Positions 12,670 through 62,212 of a stretch of 64,000 nt of DNA are shown here, piece by piece; within the stretch, counting starts at the first letter, position 1; each line of letters begins with the position of its first letter. The stretch lies in the IMG/VR virus record IMGVR_UViG_3300021387_001477, one strand, 5' to 3'. The notes beneath the pieces were generated by a model. That model saw only the letters and a list, made by a program, of their open reading frames with translations. It did not search any database and was not told the origin of the DNA. Source of the stretch: a virus. Taxonomy: Duplodnaviria > Heunggongvirae > Uroviricota > Caudoviricetes. The position numbers and the translations under genes were made by a program.

Positions 12670-12700
12670 GTTATTACTTTATGTTTCCACAAAGACTAGA
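12670..12700 (-). repeat. duplicate of the 31-nt intron-3'-tail/exon-start sequence CTAGTCTTTGTGGAAACATAAAGTAATAACG (other copy 12298-12328)
   Basis: Exact-looking repeat directly after a second intron S-element but not followed by coding sequence. Confidence 0.5.
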
Positions 12701-13464: not shown

Positions 13465-13484
13465 ACCTAAGAAGACAGTTTTGA
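13465..13484 (-). CDS. polA micro-exon (~20 nt, TCAAAACTGTCTTCTTAGGT) encoding core of polymerase motif B (KTVFLG ~ T7 AKTFIYG)
   Basis: Sits between two tandem family-B introns; with upstream exon gives RKRSF|KTVFLG; exact splice points uncertain. Confidence 0.45.
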
Positions 13485-13739
13485 CGTCTGTTATCCTATA
13501 GGCTTTTTATCCTATAGCTCTATTAGTTCATTTCCTAATAGTCCAGCATATATTTTCATCATTTCTTTTATGATGTCGAGCTCTCGTGGAAGGATTATAT
13601 TCTATTTATAGTTTCACCTTCTATGCGTTACGCTGCTATAGACTCTTTATTTCTATAGTTAGCACGGTATTAGGAATCTCACCCTTCACCGTTTTAGCTC
13701 GATTATCATCTATAGTATCACTACTATAGACGGCCCAAA
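13485..13739 (-). mobile_element. family-B small group I intron (copy 1), 255 nt
   Basis: Same conserved 5' GTCTATAGT..TATAG module, core and 3' GGATAACAGACG. Confidence 0.65.
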
Positions 13740-13740
13740 A

Positions 13741-13830
13741 TGACCTTTTTCTCCACATCTTCTTGTCTTTCTTGTCTAGTTTATCAAATTTATCGCCTAG
13801 ATAGAGCTTGGCGGTATATATATAACAATG
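13741..13830 (-). CDS. polA exon fragment (...TAKLYLGDKFDKLDKKDKKMWRKRS); 5' boundary unknown
   Basis: Open frame upstream of intron B1 ending in R-x-x-x-(F)K that completes motif B with the micro-exon. Confidence 0.35.
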
Positions 13831-13849
13831 TGTTCAGAGAGTGTCGTTA

Positions 13850-14143
13850 CTTCTCTCTGGTTCTCTTATGAACTCCTGTATATTTCTATACAGATCAGAC
13901 TATATCTTCACCTCAATACCGAGGGCTTACCGTTTCCACTACACGAACTTTGTAGTGTACTCTCTTTCGAGATAGTCGTTGGGGTTTTGATACAGAGCTA
14001 GTTAGTCATACTAGCCTTAATTTTATAAATATTTATCAAAACCTGCTGATTGGCCTTATTCTTTGATTTCTTACGGAAGTGACTAAATCTTCTCGTACCA
14101 AAGACTTAACGGGCGTTTCCAGCATTTAGTAAGTTTATTTTTC
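13850..14143 (-). mobile_element. group I intron (family C-like) in polA; boundaries approximate
   Basis: CAACGACTATCTCGAAAGAGAGTACAC ... GAAGATATAGTCTGATCTGTATAGAAATATACAGGAGTTCATAAGAGAACC tail (tail duplicated at 14530-14570). Confidence 0.45.
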
Positions 14144-14144
14144 T

Positions 14145-14241
14145 TGGGATCACTCCCAAGCGATACTTAAATCTAATATCTTCGCCTTTATTAAACTTAT
14201 CAATCAAGTCGGGATCTCCGCTTGCGAAACCTGCAGCTTTT
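14145..14241 (-). CDS. polA exon fragment between motifs A and B (KAAGFASGDPDLIDKFNKGEDIRFKYRLGV...)
   Basis: Follows G of intron B3; resembles Klenow LLTAFAEGKDIH region; ends at 20-nt hairpin repeat CTTGGGAGTGATCCCAAG. Confidence 0.4.
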
Positions 14242-14498
14242 CAGTTATGTTATCCTAAGAGCTTTTTATCTCTTAGTTCTATAGATTCTTATTTATATTC
14301 TCTATAGCTCGGCGTACATTTTTAACTATCGCTAGTTATCGGACACTCTTGGAGATACTATATTTATTCAATCTCTACGCTCTACATTACTAGAGTGCCT
14401 TTCGAAATCACTCTAGTTAACTCGGTATTTAGATTCACACTATTTACCGATTTTGCCCGATTATACTCTATAGTGTTTCCACTATAGACGGCATTTCT
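14242..14498 (-). mobile_element. family-B small group I intron (copy 3)
   Basis: GTCTATAGTGGAAACACTATAGAGTATAATCG...CGGTAAATAGTGTGAATC...GTAGAGCGTAGAGATTGAATAAATATAGTATCTCC...GGATAACATAACTG. Confidence 0.6.
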
Positions 14499-14509
14499 AC
14501 CTCTGCACT

Positions 14510-14741
<232 letters not shown>

Positions 14742-25593: not shown

Positions 25594-25665
25594 GATCCAT
25601 TAGTTCAACGATAGAACAACTGTCCCTAAAACAGCACGTTGTCGGTTTGAATCCGACATGGATCA
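25594..25665 (+). tRNA. tRNA with anticodon CUA (amber-suppressor-like; anticodon loop CCCUAAA with C33 and a 27-43 mismatch)
   Basis: GATCCAT-TA-GTTC-AACGATA-GAAC-A-ACTGT-CCCUAAA-ACAGC-ACGTT-GTCGG-TTTGAAT-CCGAC-ATGGATC-A; otherwise canonical 72-nt cloverleaf. Confidence 0.5.
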
Positions 25666-25702
25666 CAAAGGACCTAAAATCCTTATAAAAGAAAATAAAT
25701 AA

Positions 25703-29944: not shown

Positions 29945-30466
29945 ATGGATATTAATACTTTTTGGGGTTGGTTGTTTATAATCACTGCAGCATTGGTGTT
30001 GATTCAGTTGATTATGAGTATTATTAACGGGACGGACTTGGACATTGATCTAGACGGCGATGGTTTTGGAGACTTTGATCTTGGTACTATTGTCTCTCCG
30101 AAGGGTATTTTACATTTTATCTTCGGTGGGTCTGGATATCTTACTCTAATTGGTCCTGAAAAATGGAATGTCTGGGGTTATCTGATCGCAGTCTTGGTTG
30201 GTATCTTGGTGGCTGGTATCTTATTCTTAGTATATTGGGGGATGAGCAAGCTGGCGGACGAGAAGAAACAAGAGCCAGTGGAAAGTTTGGTTGGTAGATC
30301 TGGAAGCGTCTATCTTCCTATTTCCGGTGATAAGTATGAAATAACTATCACTAGGAATGGAAGACAGCAAAACATCACGGCGGTATCTAAATCAGGGAAG
30401 ACATATTCTACTGGCGATATTGTTACGGTGATTGAGGTTTCTGGAACAATTATTTATATTGACTAA
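29945..30466 (+). CDS. NfeD-like membrane protein (YqiJ-like): TM helices + C-terminal OB-fold
   Basis: Hydrophobic N-terminal half; C-terminal VGRSGSVYLPISGDKYEITITRNGRQQNITAVS; immediately upstream of SPFH gene. Confidence 0.5.
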   Translation: MDINTFWGWLFIITAALVLIQLIMSIINGTDLDIDLDGDGFGDFDLGTIVSPKGILHFIFGGSGYLTLIGPEKWNVWGYLIAVLVGILVAGILFLVYWGMSKLADEKKQEPVESLVGRSGSVYLPISGDKYEITITRNGRQQNITAVSKSGKTYSTGDIVTVIEVSGTIIYID

Positions 30467-30468
30467 AG

Positions 30469-31020
30469 ATGAAACAGTCACAATTTATAGGTTGGGTTAA
30501 AAAAGCATACCCAGATATAACAATTCAGAGACGAGATAATGGTGATTTCTGGCTTTCGGATTCTAGATATCTTCAGGTAATTGCAAGAACTGATAATATA
30601 ATTGAGTTCAGGAAGAATAAAAATAATAAACTTCCTGAACCTATGCTTGTTGAAGATGATGTCGAGATAGTAAATAATATTAGAGGTTTGTGGGGAGATC
30701 CTGGCGTTGCTTTCTCTCTTCCTCAACCACATAAAGCAGAAGTTGAGAAGAGAGAAGAGAGTAAATCAGAGCCGAGACATAAACAGCCTGAAAATAAAGA
30801 GGCACAAGATAGAGATTCGATTATACAGCTTCTTAAGGATACATTTCCAGGGCCGATCGAAGTAATTAAAGTGCCAGGAGGAAAGGCTGTGAAAGTTGGC
30901 GGCTCTAAATTAACTCTTTATGATTATGGCATTTCTTCAAAACCTAGTGAGTTTATTCCTTGGGCCAGAACAGAAGAGGTGAAACAATGTGTAACCAAAT
31001 TTATCTCCTTAAATAAATAA
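30469..31020 (+). CDS. hypothetical protein in NfeD-SPFH operon
   Basis: 183-aa ORF, 2-nt gaps to both neighbours. Confidence 0.45.
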   Translation: MKQSQFIGWVKKAYPDITIQRRDNGDFWLSDSRYLQVIARTDNIIEFRKNKNNKLPEPMLVEDDVEIVNNIRGLWGDPGVAFSLPQPHKAEVEKREESKSEPRHKQPENKEAQDRDSIIQLLKDTFPGPIEVIKVPGGKAVKVGGSKLTLYDYGISSKPSEFIPWARTEEVKQCVTKFISLNK

Positions 31021-31024
31021 CATT

Positions 31025-32992
31025 ATGAACAGTTTAACTACTATGCTGATCATTATTGCAGCAATTGTTGTAATGGTGATTCTGACTGTCTGGGGAATTC
31101 TCAGTCGGTACAAAAAGGTGAAGTCTGATGAGATCCTTGTGGTCTACGGTAAGACGAAAGGCAATTCTTCGGCAAAGTGCCTGCACGGAGGTAGTTCCTT
31201 CATATGGCCTATTATCCAGGGGGCTACCGTGATGTCAACTAAGCCAGTGACGATTCAGTGCAATCTTCAGGGAGCAATTTCTAGCCAAAAGATTAAGGTA
31301 AATGTTAACACAACAATTACCGCGGCGATATCTACTGTTCCTGAGATTATGCAGAATGCGGCTGTTCGTCTTTTAACGATGTCGCCGTCTGAGATTGAAG
31401 GACAAATTAAGGATGTTGCGTATGGACAGCTTCGTCTTATCATCGCTACACTAACTATTGAAGAGTTAGTGAATGACAGGGAAAAGTTCCTTCAGGCATG
31501 TAAGACTGGTATTGACGAAGAGCTGAAGAAATTTGGTCTGACTGTGCTCAATGTAAACTTGTCTGAGGTTTCCGACGAAGGGAACTATCTGGAGAATCTC
31601 TCTAGAGACGAGATCGCAAAAGCTGCCGCAGTAGCTGAGGCAAGTATTGCTGCCCGCGAAAAAGAGGGCGCCACAAGGACGGCAGATCAGAAAAAGCAGA
31701 AGGAGGTACAGCTCGCTCAGATTGAGAAGGACAAGCAGATTCAGGTTGCTGAAAACCAGTCTGAGCAGGCTACGCGCACTGCTGAGATCTCCAAAGAGAA
31801 GAATACTAAGGTCTCTGAGCAAAAGAAAGAGGAGACCGTAAGAATCCGTGAGATCCAGAAGGAGCAGAGCGTTGAGACTGCTAATCAGGAGCAGGAAGAG
31901 GCAATTAAGCTGGCCGAAATCGAGAAGATCAGAGAGGTTGAGATCGCAACCAAAGAGTCTGAACAAAAACAGGCAGTTGCAGAGCAGAACCGTCTTCGCG
32001 ATACTGTTATTGCTGAAAAGAAGGCTGCTACTGTATCTAGCGTAGCAAAAGCAGAAAATGATGCAGAAGCTACGAAGGCAGAAGCTGAAAAGGCTAAAGA
32101 GGCTCGTATTGTCGCTGCCGGACACCTGGCTGAACAGAATAAGAAGAAGGCAGAACAGGAGAGAGAAGCCGCTGAGTCTGAGTTTGAAAGTTCTCGTCGT
32201 CAAAGAGCGGCTGATGCTGAAAAGCAGGCAAAGATCAGCGAGAATAAAGCAGGTATTGAAGTAGCTAAGTCTGATGCTGTTCTTGGTAAGGAGAAAGCTG
32301 AGGCAGAGAAGGTCATTGGTGAATCTGAAGCCGCTGCTGAGAAGGCTATTGGTATCGCCAAGGCTCAGAAAGACAAAGAAGTTGCTCTTGCCCGCGCTGA
32401 AGCTAAGAGAGCAGAACTCGAAGCTGATCTGATCTCTGGCGCTGAGAAGGAAGCCGAGAGAAAGAAAGTGGAGGCTGAGGGTATCAAGAACAAGATCACG
32501 ATCGAGGCTGAGGCTGAGGCTGAGAAGATCCTGGCCATCGCAAAAGCAGAAGCAGAGAAGATTCGTCTCACTAAACTTGCTGAGGCTGAGGGTGAACTGA
32601 GAATGGCCGAAGTTAAGAAGGCTCTCGGTCAGGCAGAAACTGAGAATATCGCCAACATGGTCCGCGCCGGGCTTGGCGAAGCTGCTGCCATCTCCTTCAT
32701 TCTCAGAGATAAGTATGAGGGAATCATCGGTGCAGAGCAGGCCAAGTTCGAGCACATCAATCTCGGCGAAGTTAAGGTTGTCGGTGATGCTTCACAAGCC
32801 TCCAGTTTCCTTACCAAGATCGTCGACGGTGTTCAGAAGTCTAGTGTTCTTGGAGACCTGATTCCCGGACTTACTGGTCTTCTTGCTGCTGGTACAAAAT
32901 TCGACCAAAAGCAGTTGAACGGCACAAAGCCCGAAGATCCAAAACCGGACGATAAAGGCCCGAAAAACAACCCTAATTCTGAAGAAGAATAA
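31025..32992 (+). CDS. SPFH/band-7 flotillin-like protein (YqiK-like) with long Ala/Glu/Lys coiled coil
   Basis: N-terminal TM, SPFH block VVYGKTKGNS...IWPIIQGATVM...IKVNVNTTIT, then ~400 aa AEAEAEKI-type coiled coil. Confidence 0.7.
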   Translation: MNSLTTMLIIIAAIVVMVILTVWGILSRYKKVKSDEILVVYGKTKGNSSAKCLHGGSSFIWPIIQGATVMSTKPVTIQCNLQGAISSQKIKVNVNTTITAAISTVPEIMQNAAVRLLTMSPSEIEGQIKDVAYGQLRLIIATLTIEELVNDREKFLQACKTGIDEELKKFGLTVLNVNLSEVSDEGNYLENLSRDEIAKAAAVAEASIAAREKEGATRTADQKKQKEVQLAQIEKDKQIQVAENQSEQATRTAEISKEKNTKVSEQKKEETVRIREIQKEQSVETANQEQEEAIKLAEIEKIREVEIATKESEQKQAVAEQNRLRDTVIAEKKAATVSSVAKAENDAEATKAEAEKAKEARIVAAGHLAEQNKKKAEQEREAAESEFESSRRQRAADAEKQAKISENKAGIEVAKSDAVLGKEKAEAEKVIGESEAAAEKAIGIAKAQKDKEVALARAEAKRAELEADLISGAEKEAERKKVEAEGIKNKITIEAEAEAEKILAIAKAEAEKIRLTKLAEAEGELRMAEVKKALGQAETENIANMVRAGLGEAAAISFILRDKYEGIIGAEQAKFEHINLGEVKVVGDASQASSFLTKIVDGVQKSSVLGDLIPGLTGLLAAGTKFDQKQLNGTKPEDPKPDDKGPKNNPNSEEE

Positions 32993-33004
32993 AAAAAACA
33001 CGAT

Positions 33005-33035
33005 AAACAGAGGAGATTTACCTCTGTTTATTTTT
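33005..33035 (+). terminator. intrinsic terminator (AAACAGAGGAGATTTACCTCTGTTT + T-run)
   Basis: Hairpin plus TTTTT immediately after SPFH stop; next promoter follows. Confidence 0.6.
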
Positions 33036-33053
33036 CCGCCTATAAAGATTTTA

Positions 33054-33239
33054 TTGCCTTATATATGTAATAAAATAAACGAAACAATGAAAGAGAAATT
33101 TAAATTTATTGGTAGTATTATTAGTGATACTGCTGCCCTTGCTCTTATTGTAGCTGGGATTACCTTAGGAGTTCGACTTGGTGTTAAGCTCGGGAATACA
33201 ATTTCGGATACAATTGATAAGATCGGGAAGAAGCAGTAA
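33054..33239 (+). CDS. small membrane protein
   Basis: 61-aa ORF with one TM segment; promoter GCCTTATATATG 6 nt upstream region. Confidence 0.4.
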   Translation: MPYICNKINETMKEKFKFIGSIISDTAALALIVAGITLGVRLGVKLGNTISDTIDKIGKKQ

Positions 33240-33322
33240 ATCTATCTACCAGAACTAGAGAGAATATTCACTTTACGTGTGGGTATTCTCTTATTTTTCG
33301 AAACTATTAAAATAACAAAATC

Positions 33323-33841
33323 ATGGAAGAAAACAAAACAGCAACAATCATTATACTATCTATGGTGGTAATAATGATGATTTTGGGTATTAGAAATGAG
33401 CCCAAAGCGGAAATAGACCCAGATGCAAAATTCTGGATGGAAAACGAAATAGCGCTAAGAGATATGCGCACCTATATGGAAGAACATCCTGAAGAATTTA
33501 TGGATGAAGAAAACGTTACTTCCTATACGGTTACGGCAACAGTATACAATCCGGTGTCTAAACAGTGTGACTCTACTCCTCTTATTACGGCAGACTCAAG
33601 TAAAATTGACCTTACCAAATTAGAAAATGGTGAGATTAGGTGGATTGCAGTATCAAGAGACCTACTTGAGCACTTTAGTTATGGGGAGAAAGTCATGATA
33701 TCCGGACATGATGATATTTCAGGAATATATGAAATACACGACACAATGAATAGGCGGTACAGCAAATGTATAGATATTCTTATGCCTAGTTCAAAAACAA
33801 CCGGAAAATGGAAAAATGTAACGATTGAAAAAATAAATTAA
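33323..33841 (+). CDS. 3D-domain protein (MltA/RlpA-like cell-wall binding/hydrolase fold) with N-terminal TM anchor
   Basis: TATVYNPVSKQCDSTPLITADSS...IAVSRDLL...SGIYEIHDTMNRRYSKCIDILM (three conserved Asp pattern). Confidence 0.55.
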   Translation: MEENKTATIIILSMVVIMMILGIRNEPKAEIDPDAKFWMENEIALRDMRTYMEEHPEEFMDEENVTSYTVTATVYNPVSKQCDSTPLITADSSKIDLTKLENGEIRWIAVSRDLLEHFSYGEKVMISGHDDISGIYEIHDTMNRRYSKCIDILMPSSKTTGKWKNVTIEKIN

Positions 33842-33858
33842 AGGGGAGATTATCCTCT

Positions 33859-34320
33859 TTAATTTTTCTTCCATTCCTCTATATCTATTCCGTTTTCTCT
33901 AAAATATCTAAGAAGCTCTATTCTTTCACTACATGGATTGTCAGGAACCTCATACACCATCAATATTATCTCTGGCTCCTCTTGAAATCCCTCCGTCTGT
34001 TGTATAAAATCTGCCACCTTCTGTAAATAATCCATTATGTCAGAAAATTTCCAAGACCTAAGTCCCTTTGCATATGATCTCAGAAACCAACATTCTTCAG
34101 GATTTTTTACTTTACATGGACATCCTCCGGCATTACATCCTTCTGGGTTAAGTGCCTCAAACCTTATTCCATTCCATACATTATTTTGATCTTTCCACAC
34201 ATGATCTTTCCCTTTTCCGTCGTGAAACCACTTAGGATCCCACACGGCAGTTGATACAGGAATTTGCCAAGGCTTAAAGAAACGTATATTATAAAAATAG
34301 GAAGTATATATTTTCATCAA
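33859..34320 (-). CDS. hypothetical Cys/Trp-rich protein
   Basis: 153-aa ORF. Confidence 0.45.
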   Translation of the reverse strand: MMKIYTSYFYNIRFFKPWQIPVSTAVWDPKWFHDGKGKDHVWKDQNNVWNGIRFEALNPEGCNAGGCPCKVKNPEECWFLRSYAKGLRSWKFSDIMDYLQKVADFIQQTEGFQEEPEIILMVYEVPDNPCSERIELLRYFRENGIDIEEWKKN

Positions 34321-36336: not shown

Positions 36337-37887
36337 ATGCTAAAAGAAAAAGTATTATATTCATTGCGGGATATTTCTATAATTCCCGCAGTATCGACTA
36401 GTATTAGATCAAGAAAAGAATGTGACCCCTATAGAAAAAGTATAGAGGGAGAACCCGGATGGTACCCTTTGATTGCCTCTCCTATGGACTCTGTTATGGA
36501 TGATACGAATTGGAAATATTACTGGGATAATAAAATATCCTGTGTTATTCCAAGATCTATCCCACAGAGTTACCAAGAAAAAGGGTATGAGGATGGAGGA
36601 TATGAGGCTTGGTTTGAAGAAAGGAGAAAATTATGCTCTAAGGTATTTTGTGCATTTAGTTTGAAGGAAGCTAAGTGGTTCCTGGATAACTCTTATGACT
36701 ATAGTGATAAAAGCTTTAGTGATGGCCTGAGGATTTATGTCTTAATTGATATAGCCAATGGTAGTATGCAAGAGGAGATAGACCTTGGAAAAGAACTAAA
36801 GAGGAAGTATGGAGAAGGAATAATATTAATGGGAGGAAATATTGGAAATCCCCAGACGTACCTTCTTTATGATCAAGCCGGGTTTGATTTTCTTAGAGTG
36901 GGAATCGGAAGCGGACAGGGGTGTTTAGCCGGAAATACTAAAATTCCCATGTCTGATGGAACTACAAAGAATATAAAGGACTTAGTTGTTGGCGATCATA
37001 TTAAGACTATTACAGGAGACCAAAGAGTCAATGAGATTATACAAAATACCTCTGATCAGTTAGTAACAATAAATAAAGAACTGACATGTACACCAAATCA
37101 TAAATTATTTGTAATTGACAAAGACAACGGGGATCTAGTGACTAAAGAAAATATAATTTCCTTAGGACATTATGTAGAGGCTGGAGACCTAGATAAGGGG
37201 AAACATTTATTAGTCAAATTAAAGACGGAAAATTTAAAGGAAAAACTTAATAACAATATAGGATTTAATAACCCCTATAAAGCAATGGATTTTAGGCTTG
37301 AAGAAATAACCTCAATAGAAAAGATTGAAAAAGCCGTATCTACGTTTGATATAGTAGTTTCCGGAGAAGAGCACTCATTTATTACAGAGGATGGATATAT
37401 CGTTCACAACTGCCTAACTTCCACCTCAACGGCAATCCACTATCCTTACGCATCTCTGATAAGTGAAATATCTGAAATGAAGGATAGATATCATAGTCAC
37501 TGTAAAATTATAGCCGATGGAGGAATGGCATGGTATAGCGATATAATTAAGTCTCTTGCCCTTGGTGCTGATTATGTTATGTGTGGAAAAATATTCTCAC
37601 AGGCAGCAAAGACACCAGAAGAAGTAGGCCAGACATTGGTATATCGAGGAATGTCTACTAAAGCTGCTCAGGCTGGGATGGGGAATACAGGAACTCTTAA
37701 GACCGCCGAAGGAAAGAGTATGGAAGTCGTGAAGGAATATACTCTCTCGGGGTGGACGGAAAACTTTGATTCTTATCTCAGAAGTGCTATGTCCTATTGT
37801 GACTCTAGATCATTGAAAGAATTTAGGGAAAAGGCCATATGTCAGGTTATCTCTCCGAACGCCTCTTCACAAATAAATAATAAATAA
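36337..37887 (+). CDS. GMP reductase/IMP dehydrogenase-family (GuaC-like) protein interrupted by a mini-intein
   Basis: VGIGSGQG-C[intein]-LTSTSTAIHYPYASLISEI and IIADGGMAWYSDIIKSLALGADYVMCG match IMPDH/GuaC active-site loop and ADGG/ALGA motifs; extein ~353 aa. Confidence 0.6.
   Translation: MLKEKVLYSLRDISIIPAVSTSIRSRKECDPYRKSIEGEPGWYPLIASPMDSVMDDTNWKYYWDNKISCVIPRSIPQSYQEKGYEDGGYEAWFEERRKLCSKVFCAFSLKEAKWFLDNSYDYSDKSFSDGLRIYVLIDIANGSMQEEIDLGKELKRKYGEGIILMGGNIGNPQTYLLYDQAGFDFLRVGIGSGQGCLAGNTKIPMSDGTTKNIKDLVVGDHIKTITGDQRVNEIIQNTSDQLVTINKELTCTPNHKLFVIDKDNGDLVTKENIISLGHYVEAGDLDKGKHLLVKLKTENLKEKLNNNIGFNNPYKAMDFRLEEITSIEKIEKAVSTFDIVVSGEEHSFITEDGYIVHNCLTSTSTAIHYPYASLISEISEMKDRYHSHCKIIADGGMAWYSDIIKSLALGADYVMCGKIFSQAAKTPEEVGQTLVYRGMSTKAAQAGMGNTGTLKTAEGKSMEVVKEYTLSGWTENFDSYLRSAMSYCDSRSLKEFREKAICQVISPNASSQINNK
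36922..37410 (+). mobile_element. mini-intein (163 aa, no homing-endonuclease domain) in the catalytic Cys loop of GuaC-like protein
   Basis: Begins CLAGNTKIPMSDGTTKNIKDLVVGDHI (Hint block A), ends ...FITEDGYIVHN followed by extein Cys. Confidence 0.6.
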
Positions 37888-38646: not shown

Positions 38647-38736
38647 TTTCTCCTTCTTTTTTTTATCGTCGAAAAAAAAAATAAAGAGCCTGAGACTTTT
38701 AAAATCCCAGACTCAAACACATAATAATAAACAACG

Positions 38737-39468
38737 TTATTCTACAACTCTAGCACCGTGATACTCGACAGCCTCCTTGAAAATCTTAAGACTTTCTGCA
38801 GATTCGTCTATAGTAGCCATGCAAGAATCGAGGAAAACAAGTTTATTTTCATACATCGAAGAGAATACCATATCTCTTACGGTTCTAGCCACGCAAACAT
38901 CCTTAGCTACCCCAGCCACATAGATTTCATCATACTCATTGAAGAGATTTACAGGATAATCGTTTGTGAACATTGAGAAGCATTCAACATATGGATTCAA
39001 ACCTTTCTGGAGAATTCCATAAGATTTCTGAAGTCCATAATCAATCTGACGGTCATTCAGTGCTTTAATCAAGGAGTCGGGGAATGCCCAACCCCAAGAA
39101 CCGAGGATACAGTGTTCTGGCCAAATTGTAATTCCACCATTAGATTTTGCCTGATTGATGAGAAGCTCAGTGCGGCCTGAATCGGAATTGTTTCCAAAAC
39201 AGGGAACACAACGTCCTTTTTCAATGTCCTCAGCCATAATCTTCTGGAACTCCTGTAGTTTGTCTTCGGTTTTCCAAAAACAGGCATGGCCAAGGTTATA
39301 TCTATAGTGAGAATCCTGTGTGAGAATAATATCAATATCTTCTTTTATATTCTTAACGAAGCTAATGATATTCTCAACAGCCTTATCCCCTCCGTTTACA
39401 TAGAGACTTCCTTTAGGGTCTACGAAATCGTTTTGGGGATCTACGATGAGAAGCAGTTTCTTAGGCAT
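38737..39468 (-). CDS. pncA: isochorismatase-family hydrolase, nicotinamidase (PncA)-like
   Basis: LLLIVDPQNDF...; catalytic Cys context VAGVAKDVCVARTVRD; adjacent to pncB-like gene. Confidence 0.5.
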   Translation of the reverse strand: MPKKLLLIVDPQNDFVDPKGSLYVNGGDKAVENIISFVKNIKEDIDIILTQDSHYRYNLGHACFWKTEDKLQEFQKIMAEDIEKGRCVPCFGNNSDSGRTELLINQAKSNGGITIWPEHCILGSWGWAFPDSLIKALNDRQIDYGLQKSYGILQKGLNPYVECFSMFTNDYPVNLFNEYDEIYVAGVAKDVCVARTVRDMVFSSMYENKLVFLDSCMATIDESAESLKIFKEAVEYHGARVVE

Positions 39469-39859
39469 TCTTAAGAACCTTCTTGCGATATTCGCTGTTT
39501 CTCTTTCTCACCCCGGCTGTCTTATCCTCCATAAATTTGGAGAGATTTTCGAGGATCTCGCTGAAGTGTTCAGCCTTCTCCTTTACCGTGTTGTAGAAAC
39601 AGGTATAGGCTGCGTCCTTGGCCCGGGATCTTGCCAGCTTTTTACCAACCTTAACGTCGTAGGTATCATTGGGGTCACACACAGCAACTCCAACTGCCCG
39701 GCGATACTTCGAGGACAGACCGATTCCCTTTACGAAATCAACTCCACCGGCGCATTCAATTCCTTTCGGTCGGTAAACTAGAATACACGTAACTTTTTTC
39801 AGACCATCTTCGGTCGTTTCTTCCTGATAAACAGGCTCTCTAAATGATAATTTGAACAT
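39461..39859 (-). CDS. hypothetical protein in NAD-salvage operon
   Basis: 132-aa ORF between pncA- and pncB-like genes. Confidence 0.4.
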   Translation of the reverse strand: MFKLSFREPVYQEETTEDGLKKVTCILVYRPKGIECAGGVDFVKGIGLSSKYRRAVGVAVCDPNDTYDVKVGKKLARSRAKDAAYTCFYNTVKEKAEHFSEILENLSKFMEDKTAGVRKRNSEYRKKVLKNA

Positions 39860-39881
39860 AATTTATAAACGTTTATAAAGG

Positions 39882-41111
39882 TTATAGAGATATTCCAAGT
39901 TCAGTAGCTGCTCTCTGGAGTTCCGCTTCGTCTCCCATATGTTTCCCCAGATCGTCGGAGAGCTTTATACATTTTCTCCAATCCTCTCTTTCGCTAATTC
40001 TAACACTATCAAGTTTCATGACAATATTAGACGGCTTGAATTGTTCAATATTTCCGCAAAGATTTGTTCCAATACCAAACGAACACCTAATTCCCTTTCC
40101 GTCACAATATTGTTTTACTGTAACTGCTTTAGGAAAATCTAGTGCATTAGAGAATACTATAGTCTTTGTTCTGGGATCTATTCCAAGCTCACGATATCTT
40201 GCTATAGCTTTATCTACGAACTCAAATTCGTCTCCACTATCCTGTCGTATGGAATTGAAGAGGTTTGCATGTTTCTTTGAGAAATTCTTGAAGAATATAT
40301 CACTTCCAAATGTATCAGTGAGCATACACCCTAAATCACCATGATATACATCTGACCAACCCTCCATAACGATATAATTGGCCATTCGATATCCAAAGAA
40401 AGATGCAACTGCCATAACGACCTCATGTGCTAATGTTCCGATGGGCTTGAGACCATATTTCATAGCAAGATAGCAATTACTAGTTCCAGTACAATTATTT
40501 TTCCCTGAACCAGTTGCTAAAGTCTTCATAACATAATCCTGAACCTTAAAGCTTGATCTTCTCCTAGTTGAGAAATCTGCAACCTTAAGCTCATTGTCAT
40601 TCATTATAGTAATCTTCCGATCTAAGTTTTTCTTTACAATATCTAAATCATCAGACTCCCCTTGAACTTCATGATAAAGCTCTGAGACTAAAGCTAGGAT
40701 TGGTACCTCATAGAATGTCACCTTATATAGAAGATCACATACTGTAATATTAAGGTGTCCAGAATCATCCAGTTTTGCGCTAACCTTCTTTGGATCAAAT
40801 CTAAATCCTTTAAGCCACTCCCAATAGAATTGAGGAATATACTTAATAGTTTTCTTAGCCCACTCAAATTCTTCATCCTTCAGGGCCAGTTTTTCTAGAT
40901 TCTGTATCTCTTCGTTTAAACGCTCGATAAACTCTTCACTGTATACTCTATTATCTCTATCTTTAAATTTGAAAACACCTTCCGCCTCCGGATAGGTCTT
41001 CATATAAAAATAGCTCATAGAGAACTTATATAAATCATTATCTAAAATAGATACTATAAATTTATATTCTTTCATCTTATTTATAAGGATTTTAGTATGC
41101 TTCAAACTCAA
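39882..41111 (-). CDS. pncB: nicotinate phosphoribosyltransferase (PncB)-like
   Basis: N-terminal LDNDLYKFSMSYFYMKTYPEA ~ NAPRTase TDLYKxTM motif; ~400 aa as expected. Confidence 0.55.
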   Translation of the reverse strand: MSLKHTKILINKMKEYKFIVSILDNDLYKFSMSYFYMKTYPEAEGVFKFKDRDNRVYSEEFIERLNEEIQNLEKLALKDEEFEWAKKTIKYIPQFYWEWLKGFRFDPKKVSAKLDDSGHLNITVCDLLYKVTFYEVPILALVSELYHEVQGESDDLDIVKKNLDRKITIMNDNELKVADFSTRRRSSFKVQDYVMKTLATGSGKNNCTGTSNCYLAMKYGLKPIGTLAHEVVMAVASFFGYRMANYIVMEGWSDVYHGDLGCMLTDTFGSDIFFKNFSKKHANLFNSIRQDSGDEFEFVDKAIARYRELGIDPRTKTIVFSNALDFPKAVTVKQYCDGKGIRCSFGIGTNLCGNIEQFKPSNIVMKLDSVRISEREDWRKCIKLSDDLGKHMGDEAELQRAATELGISL

Positions 41112-41583
41112 GTCCGATTTCCCTCATCCGCTTTTCTATAAGATTGCACAAAACCGAATCTTTTCCTATATCCTGAAAGAAATAAACTACAGAGATCCCG
41201 TCTATAATTTTATCTTTGTCCAAGATAGGATAAATTTCCATAGTTCCAATATGATTTTCCCCATATATATTACTTGCTTGAGCCCTATGACTAACCACTG
41301 TTGTTTCACGCTTAATTGTTGGGGTATCGAAGGCATTTCCATCCATTTTTCTTGGCTCCTTAAAAGAGATTTTTCTTCGTTTATAGTAACTATTCTGTGT
41401 AGAGAGATAATAAAATGGAAGGCTAGAGTCATCAGGAACAATAATTCCAAACTTATATTTTTCAACCCCAGAAGGATATCCATGAATAAAGTAAAACCTC
41501 ATATTCTTCTCCTTAGCCATATCTACAAATTCATTTTTCATGGCCTTATCGACCTTCATCCAATCTGTTTCTATTAATTTCAT
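41092..41583 (-). CDS. hypothetical protein, first gene of NAD-salvage operon
   Basis: 163-aa ORF overlapping pncB start. Confidence 0.4.
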   Translation of the reverse strand: MKLIETDWMKVDKAMKNEFVDMAKEKNMRFYFIHGYPSGVEKYKFGIIVPDDSSLPFYYLSTQNSYYKRRKISFKEPRKMDGNAFDTPTIKRETTVVSHRAQASNIYGENHIGTMEIYPILDKDKIIDGISVVYFFQDIGKDSVLCNLIEKRMREIGLEFEAY

Positions 41584-41792
41584 TACATAAATAAGAAAAA
41601 GGCGGCGTGGATAGAGAAAATTCCTTATATCTGTGAAAAAGAAAAAGAAGAAAAAGTATGATCCTGTAAAATTAGCAGCAGGAGTACGACGAGAATTAGA
41701 AATAAAGGAACACGGAAAACAAATATCCTTTAGATCTGGTTCCGTATTTAAGTCAAAGAAAAATTATAAAAGATTAAAGAAGGTTGACCTAA

Positions 41793-42440
41793 ATGAAGCT
41801 GAAGAATAAGATCATAGATTCTGGGAATGTATACTTTATGTCTGATCTTCACTATAACCATGAAAATGTTTTAAAGATGAATAATAGAAATTTTAGTGGG
41901 ATTAGTGAGATGAATGAATATATTGTAGATACTCTCAAGAATACGATAAAGCCTGGAGATGTTATATTTGAACTTGGGGATCTCTTCTGGAGAACAGATA
42001 CAAAAGAATGTCAAAGCGTTCTTGAGTCTATTCCAACAAAAGAAATATATAAAATCATTGGCAATCACGATAAAATAAAGCTCTATGATAATGGAGAAAA
42101 TGAAGCTCCATTAAAGAAATATTTTAAAGTGATAACCGATATGCTTGATATTACCATTGAAAGCGGCGGGAAAAGTTATATGGTAACCCTAATGCATTAT
42201 CCGAGTATAGATTGGAATGGAATGTATCATGGCTCTCTTCATATTCACGGACATACTCACGGGCACTTGGATGAATTTGAAAAGAATCAGCCAAGACTTA
42301 TGGTTGATGTTGGTTTTGACGCTCAGATATGTAAGAATTATGGAAATTTTTTAATTCCATTTTCTGAAATCCTACGATATATGAACGAAAAGACCGGCGG
42401 AAAGGACTTTTATAAATGGGCAAAAGAAAATTATGGTTAA
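41793..42440 (+). CDS. calcineurin-like metallophosphoesterase
   Basis: DLHYNHEN, GDLFWR, GNHD, GHTHGH motifs. Confidence 0.6.
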   Translation: MKLKNKIIDSGNVYFMSDLHYNHENVLKMNNRNFSGISEMNEYIVDTLKNTIKPGDVIFELGDLFWRTDTKECQSVLESIPTKEIYKIIGNHDKIKLYDNGENEAPLKKYFKVITDMLDITIESGGKSYMVTLMHYPSIDWNGMYHGSLHIHGHTHGHLDEFEKNQPRLMVDVGFDAQICKNYGNFLIPFSEILRYMNEKTGGKDFYKWAKENYG

Positions 42441-47091: not shown

Positions 47092-47661
47092 ATGCTACAA
47101 ATAAATGAAAGAATTCTAGTATTATCCCCAGGTGATCAAATTCCCCAAGTTTCTGGAGATTCTATTAAATTATACTTAGCCGGAACTACAGATTTTGGCT
47201 CTGCCGAGAATGATTGGCAAGGTAAGTTTATAGACGGTCTTGTAAAACTGTCTGATCCACTGAAAGGATTACTTCTCATAAAGAACGTAAATTGGATTAT
47301 CTTCAACCCTAAGGCTCTTCCTACTAATGATATGGGTCCTTCTCTTGAAAATCCAGAGTTTGTAAATAATATCAGGTGGAGATTAATGGCACAAGATCAG
47401 GCAGATATGATTTTCTTGAATATCTTGAAAAAGTCTGTATCACCAATTCCAGTCTTAGAGTTTGGTTCTATGGTAACTTCCGGAAAGCTAGTTGTTCGGT
47501 GCAGTGAAGAGTATCAAATCTATCCACAAATTAGACTATATTGTGAAAAATTCCAGGTACCTCTTCTCACAGGAAAGACTAGTGTAAAGGATGTTATCTT
47601 AAGTGGAGGAAACTATATACAAAAATTCAGAGATCTTCAACAATATAATCTTCCTGAGTAA
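47092..47661 (+). CDS. hypothetical protein
   Basis: 189-aa ORF. Confidence 0.5.
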   Translation: MLQINERILVLSPGDQIPQVSGDSIKLYLAGTTDFGSAENDWQGKFIDGLVKLSDPLKGLLLIKNVNWIIFNPKALPTNDMGPSLENPEFVNNIRWRLMAQDQADMIFLNILKKSVSPIPVLEFGSMVTSGKLVVRCSEEYQIYPQIRLYCEKFQVPLLTGKTSVKDVILSGGNYIQKFRDLQQYNLPE

Positions 47662-57173: not shown

Positions 57174-57206
57174 AGAGGGATTTAATTTCCCTCTTTCTTC
57201 TTTTTA
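57174..57206 (+). terminator. bidirectional intrinsic terminator (AGAGGGATTTAATTTCCCTCT + T-run)
   Basis: Hairpin between convergent genes. Confidence 0.55.
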
Positions 57207-58615
57207 GTCTCTATTACAAATTTTTTCCAGGTTTTTAAGAAATTATTTGTTTTTATGTCTGTTATTATTTGGTTTCCCTTAAGATATGCTTGTTGAATTC
57301 TTATATCATATGTGAGTTCTACTGTTACATAAGATTTTTCCGGATTAGATTTTCTCCTCATAAAGAATATCATAGTTTCCCCTCTTGATACTCTACTCCA
57401 GTATGAAGCTACACAATTATGTTGCTGCAATGCCTCATCCGTGATATCATTCCGGTTCTCTACAGATCTTATAAAGAACTCATCATCTTCAAAGTTATAT
57501 TTTTTACACTCACTTATGATCTTTAGTGCGTCCAGGTCTTCTCTTTTTCTCCTTTCTTCCTCTAACTTAATTTGATTTTCACGATATAATTCAGCCACCA
57601 TATCATGATTTTGAATAAGATATTCTGGAGACTTATCAAATTTTATACCAAGCTCATCACACATTCTTTTATAATCCATGATCGTGTGAATGCTTATAAA
57701 TATATTACTGCCAAAAGTCTTTTTTAGATATTCTATGCACTTAGTGAACCAGATATATGGAGTTTTTAAATCATTTCCAAAATGCATTATTAGATAATGA
57801 TCTTTACTAAATGCGTCTCCTTTAATATTGAAATATCCTAAGTCTTTTCTCGTAAGTCCAGATTCAGCATACCACTTATATTCCTTCTCTGATATATTGT
57901 GAAGTTGAGAGATAAGACGAAGAAAATGACACCGCTCCAAGTCTGCGTCTTTGAGGTCTGGGAGAGCATAATTGGGAACCTTTAGAATAGACCTTGGATT
58001 TGTTCCCTTCATATTGCACAACCCTCTGATAGTTTTTATATTAAAGTCTTTCCCAGAGTCAATTATATCTTTTGCTAGCTTATATCCAGCTTTATAGAGA
58101 ATTTCTATCTTAGGAAAGCATATTCCAAGGAGCATATTCTGTTTATGCTCTTTAAGAAATTTATAAAGATATGGTTCATGTTCCTTAACCAAGTCCTCCA
58201 AGTCCTTCTTATCTTGGATAAAATCACTTTTTAGTAAGAATTTTTTATAACTCCCAGAAAAACTCGTGGGGGATTTATAACACCATACCTCATAGTCCGA
58301 CCAGCCATCGGGATTGCGGTAATGTTTTGCTATATTAATGCACGTTTCGTTCAGACAAAAGCTTGATTTAGCCTTGTCCCATGATATAGAGAAGCCCCTT
58401 AGCCATAGATTAGTATTGCATTCAAAGTTCTCGGAATATGGATTAATATATAAATTATCGTCGCTGATATAAAACTCCCCCACTCTTGGGGTTTTCCCCT
58501 TTCCTCTTGTATACTTCTGGAGACTATAGTTGTCTTTAAAGACCCTAATTTTTGATAAATCTATGTCCTCAGATACACTTGCTGTAACATCAAGTTTATA
58601 TTTTCTCACGCTCAT
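57182..58615 (-). CDS. hypothetical protein, paralog A (C-terminal domain possibly PcfJ-like)
   Basis: C-terminus HNCVASYWSRVSRGETMIFFMRRKSNPEKSYVTVE shared with next gene. Confidence 0.45.
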   Translation of the reverse strand: MSVRKYKLDVTASVSEDIDLSKIRVFKDNYSLQKYTRGKGKTPRVGEFYISDDNLYINPYSENFECNTNLWLRGFSISWDKAKSSFCLNETCINIAKHYRNPDGWSDYEVWCYKSPTSFSGSYKKFLLKSDFIQDKKDLEDLVKEHEPYLYKFLKEHKQNMLLGICFPKIEILYKAGYKLAKDIIDSGKDFNIKTIRGLCNMKGTNPRSILKVPNYALPDLKDADLERCHFLRLISQLHNISEKEYKWYAESGLTRKDLGYFNIKGDAFSKDHYLIMHFGNDLKTPYIWFTKCIEYLKKTFGSNIFISIHTIMDYKRMCDELGIKFDKSPEYLIQNHDMVAELYRENQIKLEEERRKREDLDALKIISECKKYNFEDDEFFIRSVENRNDITDEALQQHNCVASYWSRVSRGETMIFFMRRKSNPEKSYVTVELTYDIRIQQAYLKGNQIITDIKTNNFLKTWKKFVIETKKKKEGN

Positions 58616-60038
58616 ATCTCTCTATCTTTCTTTCAATTTTATCCCGATAGTTTATATAGCATTTCCACTCTTTAAGGAAATCTTGCGCAGGTTTGTTGTC
58701 TATTGATCTATTCCCGTGCATTAAGGCCTGGCGGATAGAGCCGGACTGATATTCTATGGTTATATATGATTTCTCAGGGGCAGTTATTTTTCGCATAAAG
58801 AAAATCATAGTCTCTCCCCTTGATACTCTATTCCAATATGAAGCTACACAGTTACTTTGTTGCTGCCCTTCATCTATGATATCCGGCTGACTTCTTACAC
58901 AACGGATGAAGAAATCACAGCCATCATACTCATACCTCTTCATGGCATCAATCCTGGCCTTAGCCTTCCTGTCCTCTTCGATCTTCATGTTATTTCTCTT
59001 TATTTCTGACACTCTTGTATGCTCTTCCCAGAAATATTTCGGATTTTCACCAACTTTGACATTGAGGTTATCACAGTCCTTGAGATAGTCTGCCAGTTGT
59101 CTATGCATTGTTGAGAGGTTATCTATACCGTGTGATTTAAAATCAATCTTAGAGAAGTACTTAAAATACCATAGATAAGGAGTTTTAGTTACTCTTCTCA
59201 TAGCGGTATAGAAATTTTGAGATTCATTTTGGTTATCTCCTCCATCGGGATTCCAGAATTCCTGTATCACCGGAGTAACTTTTAGTCCCAAGTCCCATAT
59301 ATAATTTACCTCAGCCTCTTGGATTCGATAATATCTAGTTAATGTTCGATATTTATATACTTCCTCCAATGGTAAAGATTTTATTTTCTTTAGTGCATAG
59401 TATGGAAGATCTATTATGGTTCTGGGGCTAGTTCCTTTTCCTTTAGATCCACTACATAATCCCCTCACTTCTTTTATTCTGAAATCATCACCTTCCACTA
59501 TTCTTTCGGCAAATTTATATCCTGCCTTATAAAGAATCTCCACCTTAGAAAATAGAAGTGCTTTTCTGAGATCAAAATTATTATCTACACAGAATTGATA
59601 GAGATATGGACTAATACTCTTAACCATATCACCAAGGACCTCATTACTTTGAAGACACGTAAAAGGTTCAAGCTCAGACCATAAGAAATTTCCGTTTCCA
59701 AAGGATAAGTATGTCGGAGCTTTCATTATATCAACGGAGTAATAATATTCTGTTCCTTCCTTGTGTTTAGATATCTTATAGAATAGCCTATTAATACTTC
59801 CGTCTTTGGATATAAGATACTGTCTCGGCGCTTGTTCTAAATCTGACAACGAGTCGTAAAATTCCTTCTCATCCTTCACTGAAATACAGCCATCTTTTAT
59901 TTTTCCTGGCTTATATTTACCACCCGAATAGATCACTAAGATGTCTTCTAGAAGTAAGTCTAAGGAAATATCTTTAGCACCTGGAATTTTTTCTAGAGCT
60001 TTATTAGTAAAATTTAATTTTATTTTTGCATCTATCAT
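58596..60038 (-). CDS. hypothetical protein, paralog B (C-terminal domain possibly PcfJ-like)
   Basis: C-terminus SNCVASYWNRVSRGETMIFFMRKITAPEKSYITIE; also shared internal KAGYK.A..I blocks. Confidence 0.45.
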   Translation of the reverse strand: MIDAKIKLNFTNKALEKIPGAKDISLDLLLEDILVIYSGGKYKPGKIKDGCISVKDEKEFYDSLSDLEQAPRQYLISKDGSINRLFYKISKHKEGTEYYYSVDIMKAPTYLSFGNGNFLWSELEPFTCLQSNEVLGDMVKSISPYLYQFCVDNNFDLRKALLFSKVEILYKAGYKFAERIVEGDDFRIKEVRGLCSGSKGKGTSPRTIIDLPYYALKKIKSLPLEEVYKYRTLTRYYRIQEAEVNYIWDLGLKVTPVIQEFWNPDGGDNQNESQNFYTAMRRVTKTPYLWYFKYFSKIDFKSHGIDNLSTMHRQLADYLKDCDNLNVKVGENPKYFWEEHTRVSEIKRNNMKIEEDRKAKARIDAMKRYEYDGCDFFIRCVRSQPDIIDEGQQQSNCVASYWNRVSRGETMIFFMRKITAPEKSYITIEYQSGSIRQALMHGNRSIDNKPAQDFLKEWKCYINYRDKIERKIERYEREKI

Positions 60039-60058: not shown

Positions 60059-60090
60059 AGAGGGAAATTAAATCCCTCTTAATATTTTTT
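60059..60090 (+). terminator. intrinsic terminator hairpin AAGAGGGAAATTAAATCCCTCTT + T-run
   Basis: Perfect hairpin between 60038 and 60068 gene ends. Confidence 0.5.
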
Positions 60091-62212
60091 CAGAATTTTT
60101 GAGAACATCAAGCTCTCCTCTACGTTCTTCCAAGTACGAAGATTTGAAATCCCCAAACTTATCTAAGTAGTCTTTGAACATCTCTTTTTCCATTTCTCCA
60201 TGTTCTCCAATCCATAAAGCACACTCGGCAATGAGTTTTTTATTCTTTTCTAGAACTTTAACTACCTCTTTACCTAAGTCATCGAGTTCTTTCTTTATGA
60301 GATTCTGGAGTTCTTTGTCCTCTAGGCCATCAGGAACACCACGTCCTGCTTGGATTTGATAGTTACTGTAAAGGCTTGGTGCGAAATATCCCGAATAATA
60401 GGCTACATCACTAAAGCTGTACCATACTCCCTCTAAGTCAGACCCAGAACCAAGGAGATTTAATCTAGGTGTATCGCCGAACATAACTTTTTCAGCATAA
60501 TACCCACCAAGACCTATCATAATATCATTTCTAATGTCTTCCTTGGTGGGTATTTCTCCAGTCCGATCTGAATCATAAGTAATACAGAATCCACCACCCT
60601 CTGCAGCTACACCAACAATTTTATCTGGTAATTTTCCAGTACACCAGGCCATCATAATTGCGTGCCCAGTTTCATGAACCCCATTTATAAATCTCGTCTT
60701 TATCCGTTTTGGAGATCGTAATTCACCAAGTTCAAGATGTATATTCTTCTCAATACACTCCTCTTTCTCATCTCCCTTTATTAGAAGAGTCGCATCAGGA
60801 ACTTTATATGTACTCCCTTCTGGTGACTTTACATCAATTATAATATCTTTACTATTCTTAAAGTGAAGTAAGATATCTGAGAATATAGGAGATAAGATGG
60901 TACCTATTGTTGTAAAAACTGGTCTAACACCTTGAACTGGAAATACAGACTCAAAATAGAGAAGATCATACATTCTATCACTCAGACTTACCTTTTTCTC
61001 AGAAATAGTCTCAAAACTGGTGCATAATCTCTCTACCTCTTTCCTAATTATTTTCTGGAAATGTTCTTTCTTGAGAGTAGGATATTTTATGAGGGAATTT
61101 CCAAATCTAGCTATTTGTTCTGCTCTAAATCTCTTCTTTAGTGCATTTTTGATATCTGATATGGTAACCTTTGACGTCTCATCATAAAATATATCTGCAT
61201 CTACGTCAGGATTTAAATCTCCCTCAACCTTAAAGGCTTCATCAAGATTTCCGACGATGAATACTAAAGCCTTCGAGCAATCAAGATATCTCGGTGCCAT
61301 AATCATAGTCTCATATTCCTGGAGTTTGTCAGAAAATTCTCTGGTAGTTGTACAGGAGTTTAGTTCGGCTACAATTTGTGATGCCTTATGGTCGGGAGAT
61401 ATCATTCCTAGTCTTCTGATAATGAATCGAAGTACATAGTCCTCAAGAATACTCAGAGGGCTTAATCTCTCTTCCTCAGTCATTTCTGCCTCATCAGATA
61501 CTCCAATGTATTTATTTCTTGGTTTCATTACATCTGGAACACCGCGATTATAATAGAAATATCCTAGAACACTGAGAGTCTTCTTTACGTCTTCAGGATC
61601 TTCTATTACCATGTTGTTTATCTTGATCTCAGGATATGTCTTAGCTAGTCCTGCAAAATCTTCAATAAAGTTTGTAGTTGAGGAAAGCTCATAGGTATTG
61701 TCGTTTATATCAAGGATTCCATTATCTATCATACTCCAGATTGGGCGAAGATTTGGTTTATCTACTTCACACCCTCCCTCATCTAAAGTTCTGGCGTATT
61801 GGAATTCATCAAGAATAAAGACAAGATCCTGAGAAAATTTATCTACGTTCTTCTCCGCTTCTTCTGTGCTAAGAAGATCACAAATTTTTCTGGATATTCC
61901 ACTAGAGGCTGCCGAATTATTTTCTAATCCACAGTCATAAAATAGACTTTTCCCAGACAGTCCAAGTTGTTCTACCAGTTCCCTAATTACGCTGGATTTC
62001 CCTGTTCCTGTCATTCCCCATAAAGAGATAACAACAGGTCTTTCGATAATTTCGGGGGTTACATACCAAGGAGTTATAGAAGAAATGATTTGATCGATGA
62101 TATTATCAAGGCCGACAAATTTTTCCTTTAGCCCGGCCCTGATTGTCTCAAGTCTTTGTATTCTTTCCTCCCTGTTTTTAGGTTTGTTATATTTATCTAC
62201 CATATTAAACAA
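60068..62212 (-). CDS. FtsH-like ATP-dependent zinc metalloprotease homolog without membrane anchor (divergent P-loop NTPase + M41-like peptidase)
   Basis: Walker A GMTGTGKSS; Walker B-like FILDEFQ; VHETGHAIM zinc motif followed by GGYYAEKVMFG...GSGSDLEGV resembling FtsH HEAGHA...GGRAAEE...GASND. Confidence 0.55.
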   Translation of the reverse strand: MFNMVDKYNKPKNREERIQRLETIRAGLKEKFVGLDNIIDQIISSITPWYVTPEIIERPVVISLWGMTGTGKSSVIRELVEQLGLSGKSLFYDCGLENNSAASSGISRKICDLLSTEEAEKNVDKFSQDLVFILDEFQYARTLDEGGCEVDKPNLRPIWSMIDNGILDINDNTYELSSTTNFIEDFAGLAKTYPEIKINNMVIEDPEDVKKTLSVLGYFYYNRGVPDVMKPRNKYIGVSDEAEMTEEERLSPLSILEDYVLRFIIRRLGMISPDHKASQIVAELNSCTTTREFSDKLQEYETMIMAPRYLDCSKALVFIVGNLDEAFKVEGDLNPDVDADIFYDETSKVTISDIKNALKKRFRAEQIARFGNSLIKYPTLKKEHFQKIIRKEVERLCTSFETISEKKVSLSDRMYDLLYFESVFPVQGVRPVFTTIGTILSPIFSDILLHFKNSKDIIIDVKSPEGSTYKVPDATLLIKGDEKEECIEKNIHLELGELRSPKRIKTRFINGVHETGHAIMMAWCTGKLPDKIVGVAAEGGGFCITYDSDRTGEIPTKEDIRNDIMIGLGGYYAEKVMFGDTPRLNLLGSGSDLEGVWYSFSDVAYYSGYFAPSLYSNYQIQAGRGVPDGLEDKELQNLIKKELDDLGKEVVKVLEKNKKLIAECALWIGEHGEMEKEMFKDYLDKFGDFKSSYLEERRGELDVLKNSEKILRGI

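Follow-up and report, generated by a model that had tools for sequence, protein, structure and literature searches.

A two-enzyme operon in a gut jumbo phage that probably encodes the entry half of deamidating nicotinamide salvage

The stretch of DNA analyzed here (the window; 64,000 nucleotides of the Caudoviricetes record IMGVR_UViG_3300021387_001477) carries a compact minus-strand operon of four genes, two of which encode a nicotinate phosphoribosyltransferase (PncB) and a divergent nicotinamidase (PncA-like). Judged from its sequence, this operon probably represents the entry half of deamidating nicotinamide salvage, that is, a nicotinamidase together with the first enzyme of the Preiss-Handler pathway, in a gut jumbo phage of ~317 kb. 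It corresponds, as the reverse complement, to roughly positions 229149-293148 of a metagenomic contig of 317,399 bp (ENA ERZ12302816 NODE_16), and its gene content includes a topoisomerase II large subunit, several HNH endonucleases, eight tRNAs, and PcfJ-like genes. A megablast comparison of the region with 50,697 deposited phage records returned no match and thus no close relative. The size of the contig, its gene content, and the lack of a close relative among these deposited genomes therefore identify the source as a jumbo phage that is known solely from metagenomes.

The four open reading frames (ORFs) run from 41583 to 38737, with the coordinates given in the initial annotation, the sole correction being the start of PncB, which alignments of homologues and the public gene call place at ATG 41075. 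The genes of the operon and the elements that flank it are as follows.

41092..41583, minus strand: ORF163, 163 aa, the first gene of the operon, a lineage-specific orphan
39882..41075, minus strand: PncB, nicotinate phosphoribosyltransferase, 397 aa from ATG 41075 (the mechanical ORF extends to TTG 41111 and gives 409 aa)
39461..39859, minus strand: ORF132, 132 aa, a β-sheet followed by a long helix, a member of an uncharacterized phage family
38737..39468, minus strand: PncA-like nicotinamidase of the long-insert subfamily, 243 aa, the last gene of the operon
38686..38714, minus strand: intrinsic-terminator-like hairpin and T-run, 23 nt beyond the stop codon of PncA, closing the operon
41584..41792, no strand assigned: intergenic region shared with a divergent metallophosphoesterase gene, the presumed promoter site on gene arrangement alone

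By all sequence criteria PncB is a bona fide nicotinate phosphoribosyltransferase (NAPRTase), and its family assignment is unambiguous. It scores 387.6 bits against the NCBIfam equivalog TIGR01514 (cutoff 269.55) and 420 against NF003704 (cutoff 379), and Pfam recognizes both the N-terminal domain (PF17767, residues 23-143) and the catalytic domain (PF04095, residues 176-404). Among solved structures, the NAPRTase 2im5 comes closest and aligns end to end (residues 7-395, E = 1.4 × 10−105). A weak match to the phage Nampt PHROG was also obtained (5.4 × 10−7). The sequence GTLAHE in PncB matches a G-T-x-A-H-E motif that is invariant in the PncB alignment and that we take to be the phosphohistidine site. 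Enzymes of the PncB type depend on phosphoribosyl pyrophosphate (PRPP) and are driven by ATP, and the phage protein is predicted to form nicotinic acid mononucleotide (NaMN) from nicotinate and PRPP.

The 243-aa protein passes the PF00857 profile (E = 2.6 × 10−12; 47.6 against a cutoff of 27). Of its eight matches in the PDB, the seven best are nicotinamidase-type chains, including 3r2j, which is titled merely an α/β-hydrolase-like protein, and the weakest is an isochorismatase hydrolase. The Asp-Lys-Cys triad (D10, K155, and C192) is invariant across 25 aligned sequences and presumably aligns with D8, K96, and C138 of Mycobacterium tuberculosis PncA. An Asp-x-His…His metal site distinguishes nicotinamidases from isochorismatases proper. 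In the 243-aa protein this site consists of D52, H54, and H119, the latter within a WPEHC motif, which are likewise invariant across the 25 sequences and whose counterparts in the alignment with yeast Pnc1 (PDB 2h0r) are D51, H53, and H94. Bacterial homologues are coupled to the same pathway: pncB lies within 5 kb at 29 of 80 bacterial loci, and 14 of the 80 have nadE as well. At loci of the long form, pncB is encoded on the same strand ~50-200 nt further downstream, and nadE often comes after it. On the basis of the PDB matches, the invariant triad and metal site, and this bacterial coupling to pncB, the 243-aa protein is read as a divergent nicotinamidase with a predicted amidase activity. 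The identities guessed in the initial annotation are thus borne out by the profile searches (PF00857 for the 243-aa protein, PF04095 and PF17767 for PncB), and as every catalytic and metal residue of a nicotinamidase is in place, the concern that the protein might be an isochorismatase proper falls away.

In the proposed mechanism, nicotinamide, the pyridine fragment freed upon cleavage of NAD+, would be deamidated to nicotinate by the 243-aa protein acting as a metal-dependent cysteine amidase. PncB would condense nicotinate with PRPP in an ATP-driven reaction that yields NaMN, and NadD and NadE, either those of the host or enzymes encoded elsewhere in the phage genome, would finish the conversion of NaMN into NAD+. 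As a net consequence, a breakdown product of NAD+ would flow back to NAD+, sustaining the pool during phage replication. Since a nicotinamidase is the conserved partner of PncB, the intended substrate may be this breakdown product and not imported nicotinate.

Several observations weigh against this reading of the operon. The 243-aa protein scores 47.9 bits against the NCBIfam PncA equivalog NF008623, far below the cutoff of 174, and it contains an insertion of ~55 residues; on both these grounds, nicotinamide should be regarded as its predicted substrate. Moreover, neither NadD nor NadE was found in the 64-kb window or in the 6 kb beyond it, out of the ~317-kb contig, by tblastn with the NadE of relatives, a hidden Markov model derived from the NadD sequences of 60 phage loci, a signature regular expression, Pfam scans, and precomputed Pfam labels, and the visible genes therefore end at NaMN. 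No adenylyltransferase signature or profile match was obtained in the window. Of 7,936 matches to a NadE profile, the best 120 include none whose contig measures 317, 319, or 355 kb. Because the two enzymes are not in the 64-kb window, they would have to be supplied by the host, in which they can be expected as near-universal bacterial enzymes, or by other parts of the phage genome.

The architecture of the operon and its conservation demonstrate that all four are real genes and not chance ORFs, three of them being under strong constraint. The gap between the ORF163 stop codon and the PncB start is 16 nt when PncB is taken from ATG 41075, PncB and ORF132 are separated by 22 nt, and ORF132 and the PncA-like gene overlap by 8 nt, ATGCCTAA. 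The terminator-like hairpin (minus strand, 38714-38686) has a stem of 13 bp with 5 GC pairs, followed by TTTATTTTTT. A sigma-70 pattern scan found 12 sites, compared with the 10.8 expected in shuffled sequence, and as this is no enrichment, no promoter is claimed. The four-gene block is retained in a relative of 355 kb (L017). Between the two phages synonymous divergence (dS) is ~0.15-0.2, the reading frames are intact in both, and the ratio of nonsynonymous to synonymous divergence (dN/dS) is 0.06 for PncB, 0.06 for ORF132, 0.08 for PncA, and 0.42 for ORF163. A comparison with the PADLOC defense models yielded no meaningful match, either in the operon or in the genes beside it.

The pairing of PncB with a nicotinamidase recurs in phages and bacteria. 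Among the relatives, phage-like contigs that carry the long-insert nicotinamidase (L008 and L011-L014), PncB and PncA are adjacent and 4 nt apart in the 357-kb L008, the order is PncB-NadE-x-PncA in L012, and NadE adjoins PncA in L011, L013, and L014; the NadE of these relatives is confirmed by TIGR00552. A PncB profile scan of IMG/VR identified 152 viral contigs. In the best 80 PncB-bearing loci (whose PncB sequences fall into 13 clusters at 80% identity, with the IMG/VR viral classification taken as given), 59-60 carry PncA-PncB-NadE-NadD on one strand, while PncA-PncB-NadE is found in 4, PncA-PncB in 7, and PncB alone in 9. The NadD of these clusters is confirmed by NCBIfam, with that of L107 above the TIGR00482 cutoff. 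Deposited phage genomes (50,697 records) contain PncB in 13 cases, the present nicotinamidase subfamily in 5, and both in 3.

A major facilitator superfamily (MFS) transporter is encoded within a few kb of PncB in L012 (2150-3898) and in L008 (1045-2223). In L012 it adjoins a nucleoside 2-deoxyribosyltransferase-like gene, and the window keeps the deoxyribosyltransferase-like gene without the MFS gene. The identification of this transporter as a NiaP-type niacin transporter was considered and found unsupported, as it resembles, below cutoff, SfMCT-like monocarboxylate and oxalate/formate transporters. Nicotinate is itself a monocarboxylate, so a role in its uptake is conceivable for the transporter of these relatives.

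The initial annotation had suggested that the operon could be a third, previously undescribed route of NAD+ reconstitution. This does not hold, as Preiss-Handler clusters (pncB-nadD-nadE, with pncA mentioned) have been catalogued bioinformatically in gut jumbo phages by Li et al. (Microbiome 2024; PMC11662467), the full cluster is present at ~60 of the best 80 IMG/VR loci, and the name NARP3 is already taken by PnuC-NadR (PMC13464706). The operon of the window is best described as a reduced and rearranged version of these catalogued phage gene sets. Like the clusters of the “NAD-jumbo phages” (PMC11662467) and of IMG/VR, it belongs to a large gut-type phage, pairs a nicotinamidase with a PncB that shares their family (46-55% identity), and has the same inferred purpose, the provision of NAD+ via the deamidated route. 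Compared with the complete cluster by which “NAD-jumbo phages” are defined, pncB is present, whereas nadD and nadE were not found in the window and the adjoining 6 kb. The order is PncB then PncA and not PncA then PncB, the nicotinamidase is of a different, long-insert subfamily, and two unrelated small genes are inserted. The reduced two-enzyme form, the reversed gene order, the distinct nicotinamidase subfamily, and the two inserted small genes are thus what is particular to the window.

Bacterial pncA-pncB(-nadE) operons, such as pncA-pncB1-nadE of P. aeruginosa (PMC7318152) and those of Burkholderiales (L027-L052), share the long-insert nicotinamidase subfamily (25-32% identity) and a pncB on the same strand, but they serve cellular housekeeping salvage and have pncA before pncB, usually followed by nadE. 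NARP2 (Nampt and Nmnat; 10.1101/2024.02.11.579819) likewise starts from nicotinamide and PRPP and uses a phosphoribosyltransferase of the same superfamily. Its route, however, is an amidated one of two steps via nicotinamide mononucleotide that is self-sufficient, whereas the present operon would deamidate first, end at NaMN, and need NadD and NadE. The phosphoribosyltransferase of the window is a NAPRTase equivalog, and with no adenylyltransferase match beside it the operon does not qualify as NARP2, whose counter-defense function is proven, whereas such a function is here suggested by analogy. NARP1 (Adps and Namat) and NARP3 (PnuC and NadR; PMC13464706) are also phage operons that rebuild NAD+, the former by recycling ADP-ribose (ADPR) through ADPR-PP, the latter by importing nicotinamide riboside. 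No Pfam, NCBIfam, or PHROG match to their families (PRPS-like ADPR pyrophosphokinase, Namat, PnuC, NadR) was found in the operon or its neighbors.

The two small genes do not supply the enzymes that are not seen, although the initial annotation had raised the possibility that they are NadD/NadE-like. ORF132 models as a dsRBD-like sheet with a long helix, of a type related to Rv2632c, Rv1738, and Acb4, and ORF163 is an orphan with neither a family match nor a confident fold; the NadD/NadE-like assignment was therefore rejected. Sequence searches identify ORF163 as a fast-evolving, lineage-specific orphan: just four protein clusters match it among 5.8 billion sequences, all with 86-100% identity, there is no match in Pfam, NCBIfam, PHROG, PADLOC, or the PDB, and its AlphaFold2 model, with a predicted local distance difference test (pLDDT) score of 38, is unusable.

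The model of ORF132 (pLDDT 93.9) consists of a four-stranded sheet and then a long helix. Its family comprises proteins of 110-190 residues with the motif GxAxCxPxDxFDxxxGKKIAxAKAE, and when the family profile was compared with 177,635 PDB sequences, the top three were Rv2632c, Rv1738, and Acb4, all aligned on the family motif. ORF132 may thus have an Rv2632c/Rv1738/Acb4-like dsRBD-type fold, as suggested by its model, with a remote relation to these proteins. The relation to Acb4, an anti-CBASS sponge (PF13876; PDB 9e4w; PMC11722364), is weak; hhalign gives a probability of 19% over 33 columns, ORF132 itself has no match to PF13876, and it differs by its long C-terminal helix. SPO1 Acb4 itself matches PF13876 at 1.5 × 10−8, compared with 1 of 42 members of the ORF132 family (E = 0.0049), and 7 of 42 match PF08962, the family of Rv2632c and Rv1738. 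These comparisons concern ORF132 alone and not the operon as a whole. The closest predicted viral structures are uncharacterized proteins of crAss-like Bacteroides phages.

Most PncB-PncA clusters of relatives lack ORF132. One other contig has a 63%-identical copy that again immediately precedes a PncA-like gene, and remoter members of the family sit among small unannotated phage genes. At 6 of the 80 PncB-bearing viral loci (among L104-L108 and L173-L174), an ORF132-family member is found on the upstream side of the PncA-PncB-NadE-NadD cluster, at most 4 kb away; the members near those clusters lie on either strand and are weak matches (E = 4 × 10−6 to 6 × 10−8). ORF132 and ORF163 would seem to be lineage-specific passengers or accessories that stand outside the NAD pathway, and a sponge-like role for ORF132 as an accessory gene is speculative.

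The genes around the operon point to nucleotide metabolism. They include an IMP dehydrogenase (IMPDH)/GMP-reductase-like gene (36337-37887, plus strand) and a nucleoside deoxyribosyltransferase-like gene (47092-47661). The former harbors an intein, with Hint/Intein_splicing matches at residues ~194-358 of 516 aa, its orthologue in L017 is intein-free at 353 aa, and NCBIfam leaves the choice between GMP reductase and IMP dehydrogenase undecided; it is also syntenic with PncB-PncA in L008. Divergent from the operon is a 215-aa calcineurin-like metallophosphoesterase (41793-42440, plus strand), which adjoins PncB in the same arrangement in L012 (41% identity); in L003 a 50%-identical copy is separated from the PncA-like gene by 5 kb. 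The identification of the metallophosphoesterase of the window as an aRES-countering phosphatase, the ADPR-1P phosphatase of an extended NARP1, was rejected, as Adpp is a Macro-domain protein.

The selective benefit of deamidating salvage to the phage may be counter-defense or general supply. General metabolic support, in which the genes act as auxiliary metabolic genes of a large phage that has many NAD+-using enzymes and a long infection, and would raise the supply of NAD+ regardless of any defense, falls in our estimate a little short of an even chance. It follows the interpretation given by Li et al. 2024 (PMC11662467), it agrees with the nucleotide-metabolism neighborhood of IMPDH/GMP-reductase-like and nucleoside deoxyribosyltransferase-like genes, and it has a parallel in the jumbo phage PA5oct, which up-regulates the pncA-pncB1-nadE operon of a host without a stated NADase defense (PMC7318152). 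However, no NAD+-consuming enzyme was recognized in the 64-kb window, and metabolic support leaves unexplained why this lineage has conserved a nicotinamidase as the partner, and not an importer of nicotinate. Metabolic support is in any case compatible with a counter-defense function and does not exclude it. Such a dedicated, NARP-like function, which refines the salvage reading without contradicting it, is plausible by analogy, though we hold it tentatively: the operon would rebuild NAD+ from the nicotinamide that is freed by the SIR2, TIR, and SEFIR NADases of systems such as Thoeris, DSR, and SIR2-HerA, rescuing the infection from abortion. There are precedents in NARP1 and NARP2 (10.1101/2024.02.11.579819) and in NARP3 (PMC13464706), which establish that phage NAD+ salvage can overcome NAD+-depleting defenses. 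The presence of a nicotinamidase would make nicotinamide, the product of these NADases, and not environmental nicotinate the entry substrate. ORF163, moreover, evolves fast, as is often the case for genes involved in host interactions, and ORF132, from within the operon, remotely resembles the immune-signal sponge Acb4 in sequence and fold, but that link is weak given the low hhalign probability and the absent PF13876 match. The route is also costly, as it needs four enzymes, two of which are not seen here, as well as PRPP and ~three ATP per NAD+. In yeast, the removal of nicotinamide by Pnc1 lifts the product inhibition of Sir2, and a nicotinamidase could thus in principle speed the cleavage of NAD+. 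A literature search, which did not span the whole literature, yielded no report of PncA or PncB tested as a counter-defense.

A composite counter-defense unit was also considered, in which PncA and PncB with the NadD and NadE of the host would rebuild NAD+ after SIR2- or TIR-type attack, as a fourth, deamidating pathway of which PncA-PncB-NadE-NadD is the complete form, and ORF132 would sequester a nucleotide immune signal that is possibly derived from NAD+; taken as a whole, this proposal appears unlikely. Far less probable still is that the operon is a decaying remnant of a once complete four-gene module, from which the lineage has lost NadE and NadD and in which PncB and PncA are purposeless or on their way out. 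Most phage versions are indeed complete, and relatives place NadE between PncB and PncA or beside PncA, where the window has unrelated small ORFs. The dN/dS values of 0.06-0.08, with frames intact in two phages that are separated by the dS given above, and active sites in which all catalytic residues are preserved make decay improbable, and a two-gene version can still work in hosts in which NadD and NadE are near-universal. The salvage reading, with the first two steps encoded by the phage and NadD and NadE supplied by the host or by other phage genes, is thus the one preferred.

Some features of the window lie apart from the operon. Four group I introns score above the Rfam gathering threshold on the minus strand (12308-12572, 12677-12942, 13876-14185, and 14564-14800). 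This cluster (12308-14800) lies in a 2.4-kb stretch downstream of an 893-aa ORF (14742-17423) in which neither the ORF list nor the public call has a gene, and with HNH endonuclease genes nearby, the arrangement suggests one large gene that is split by several introns. Among the eight tRNAs is one with a CTA anticodon, an amber suppressor that ARAGORN calls tRNA-Pyl (25594-25666, plus strand). Recoding of TAG was rejected for the window, as TAG readthrough brings no greater gain in ORF coverage than TGA readthrough, and none of the operon genes contains an in-frame stop; any recoding would therefore act elsewhere in the genome, and the standard genetic code was used throughout. A tandem pair of PcfJ-like paralogues (477 and 480 aa; 57182-60038, minus strand) is adjoined by a gene for a 714-aa AAA/FtsH-like protease-related protein (60068-62212). 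The local GC content at 30000-34000 is 42%, compared with ~35% elsewhere, which coincides with a 655-aa SPFH/Band 7 protein (31025-32992).

NAD+ is a central battlefield of phage-bacterial immunity, and three phage pathways of NAD+ reconstitution have been proven experimentally, none of which proceeds via the deamidated PncA/PncB route. Large phages nevertheless often encode this route, in most cases by a complete PncA-PncB-NadE-NadD operon, and strong purifying selection maintains the two-enzyme form in one lineage of jumbo phages. A small Acb4-like family, shared with crAss-like phages, is flagged as a binding candidate. If the operon provides just metabolic support, the finding would be an ordinary one. 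The value of the operon lies chiefly in the clean handle that it offers for experiments: minimal and complete constructs would let one ask whether deamidating salvage acts against defenses of the Thoeris, DSR, and SIR2-HerA type, and whether the NadD and NadE of the host are enough for it to do so.

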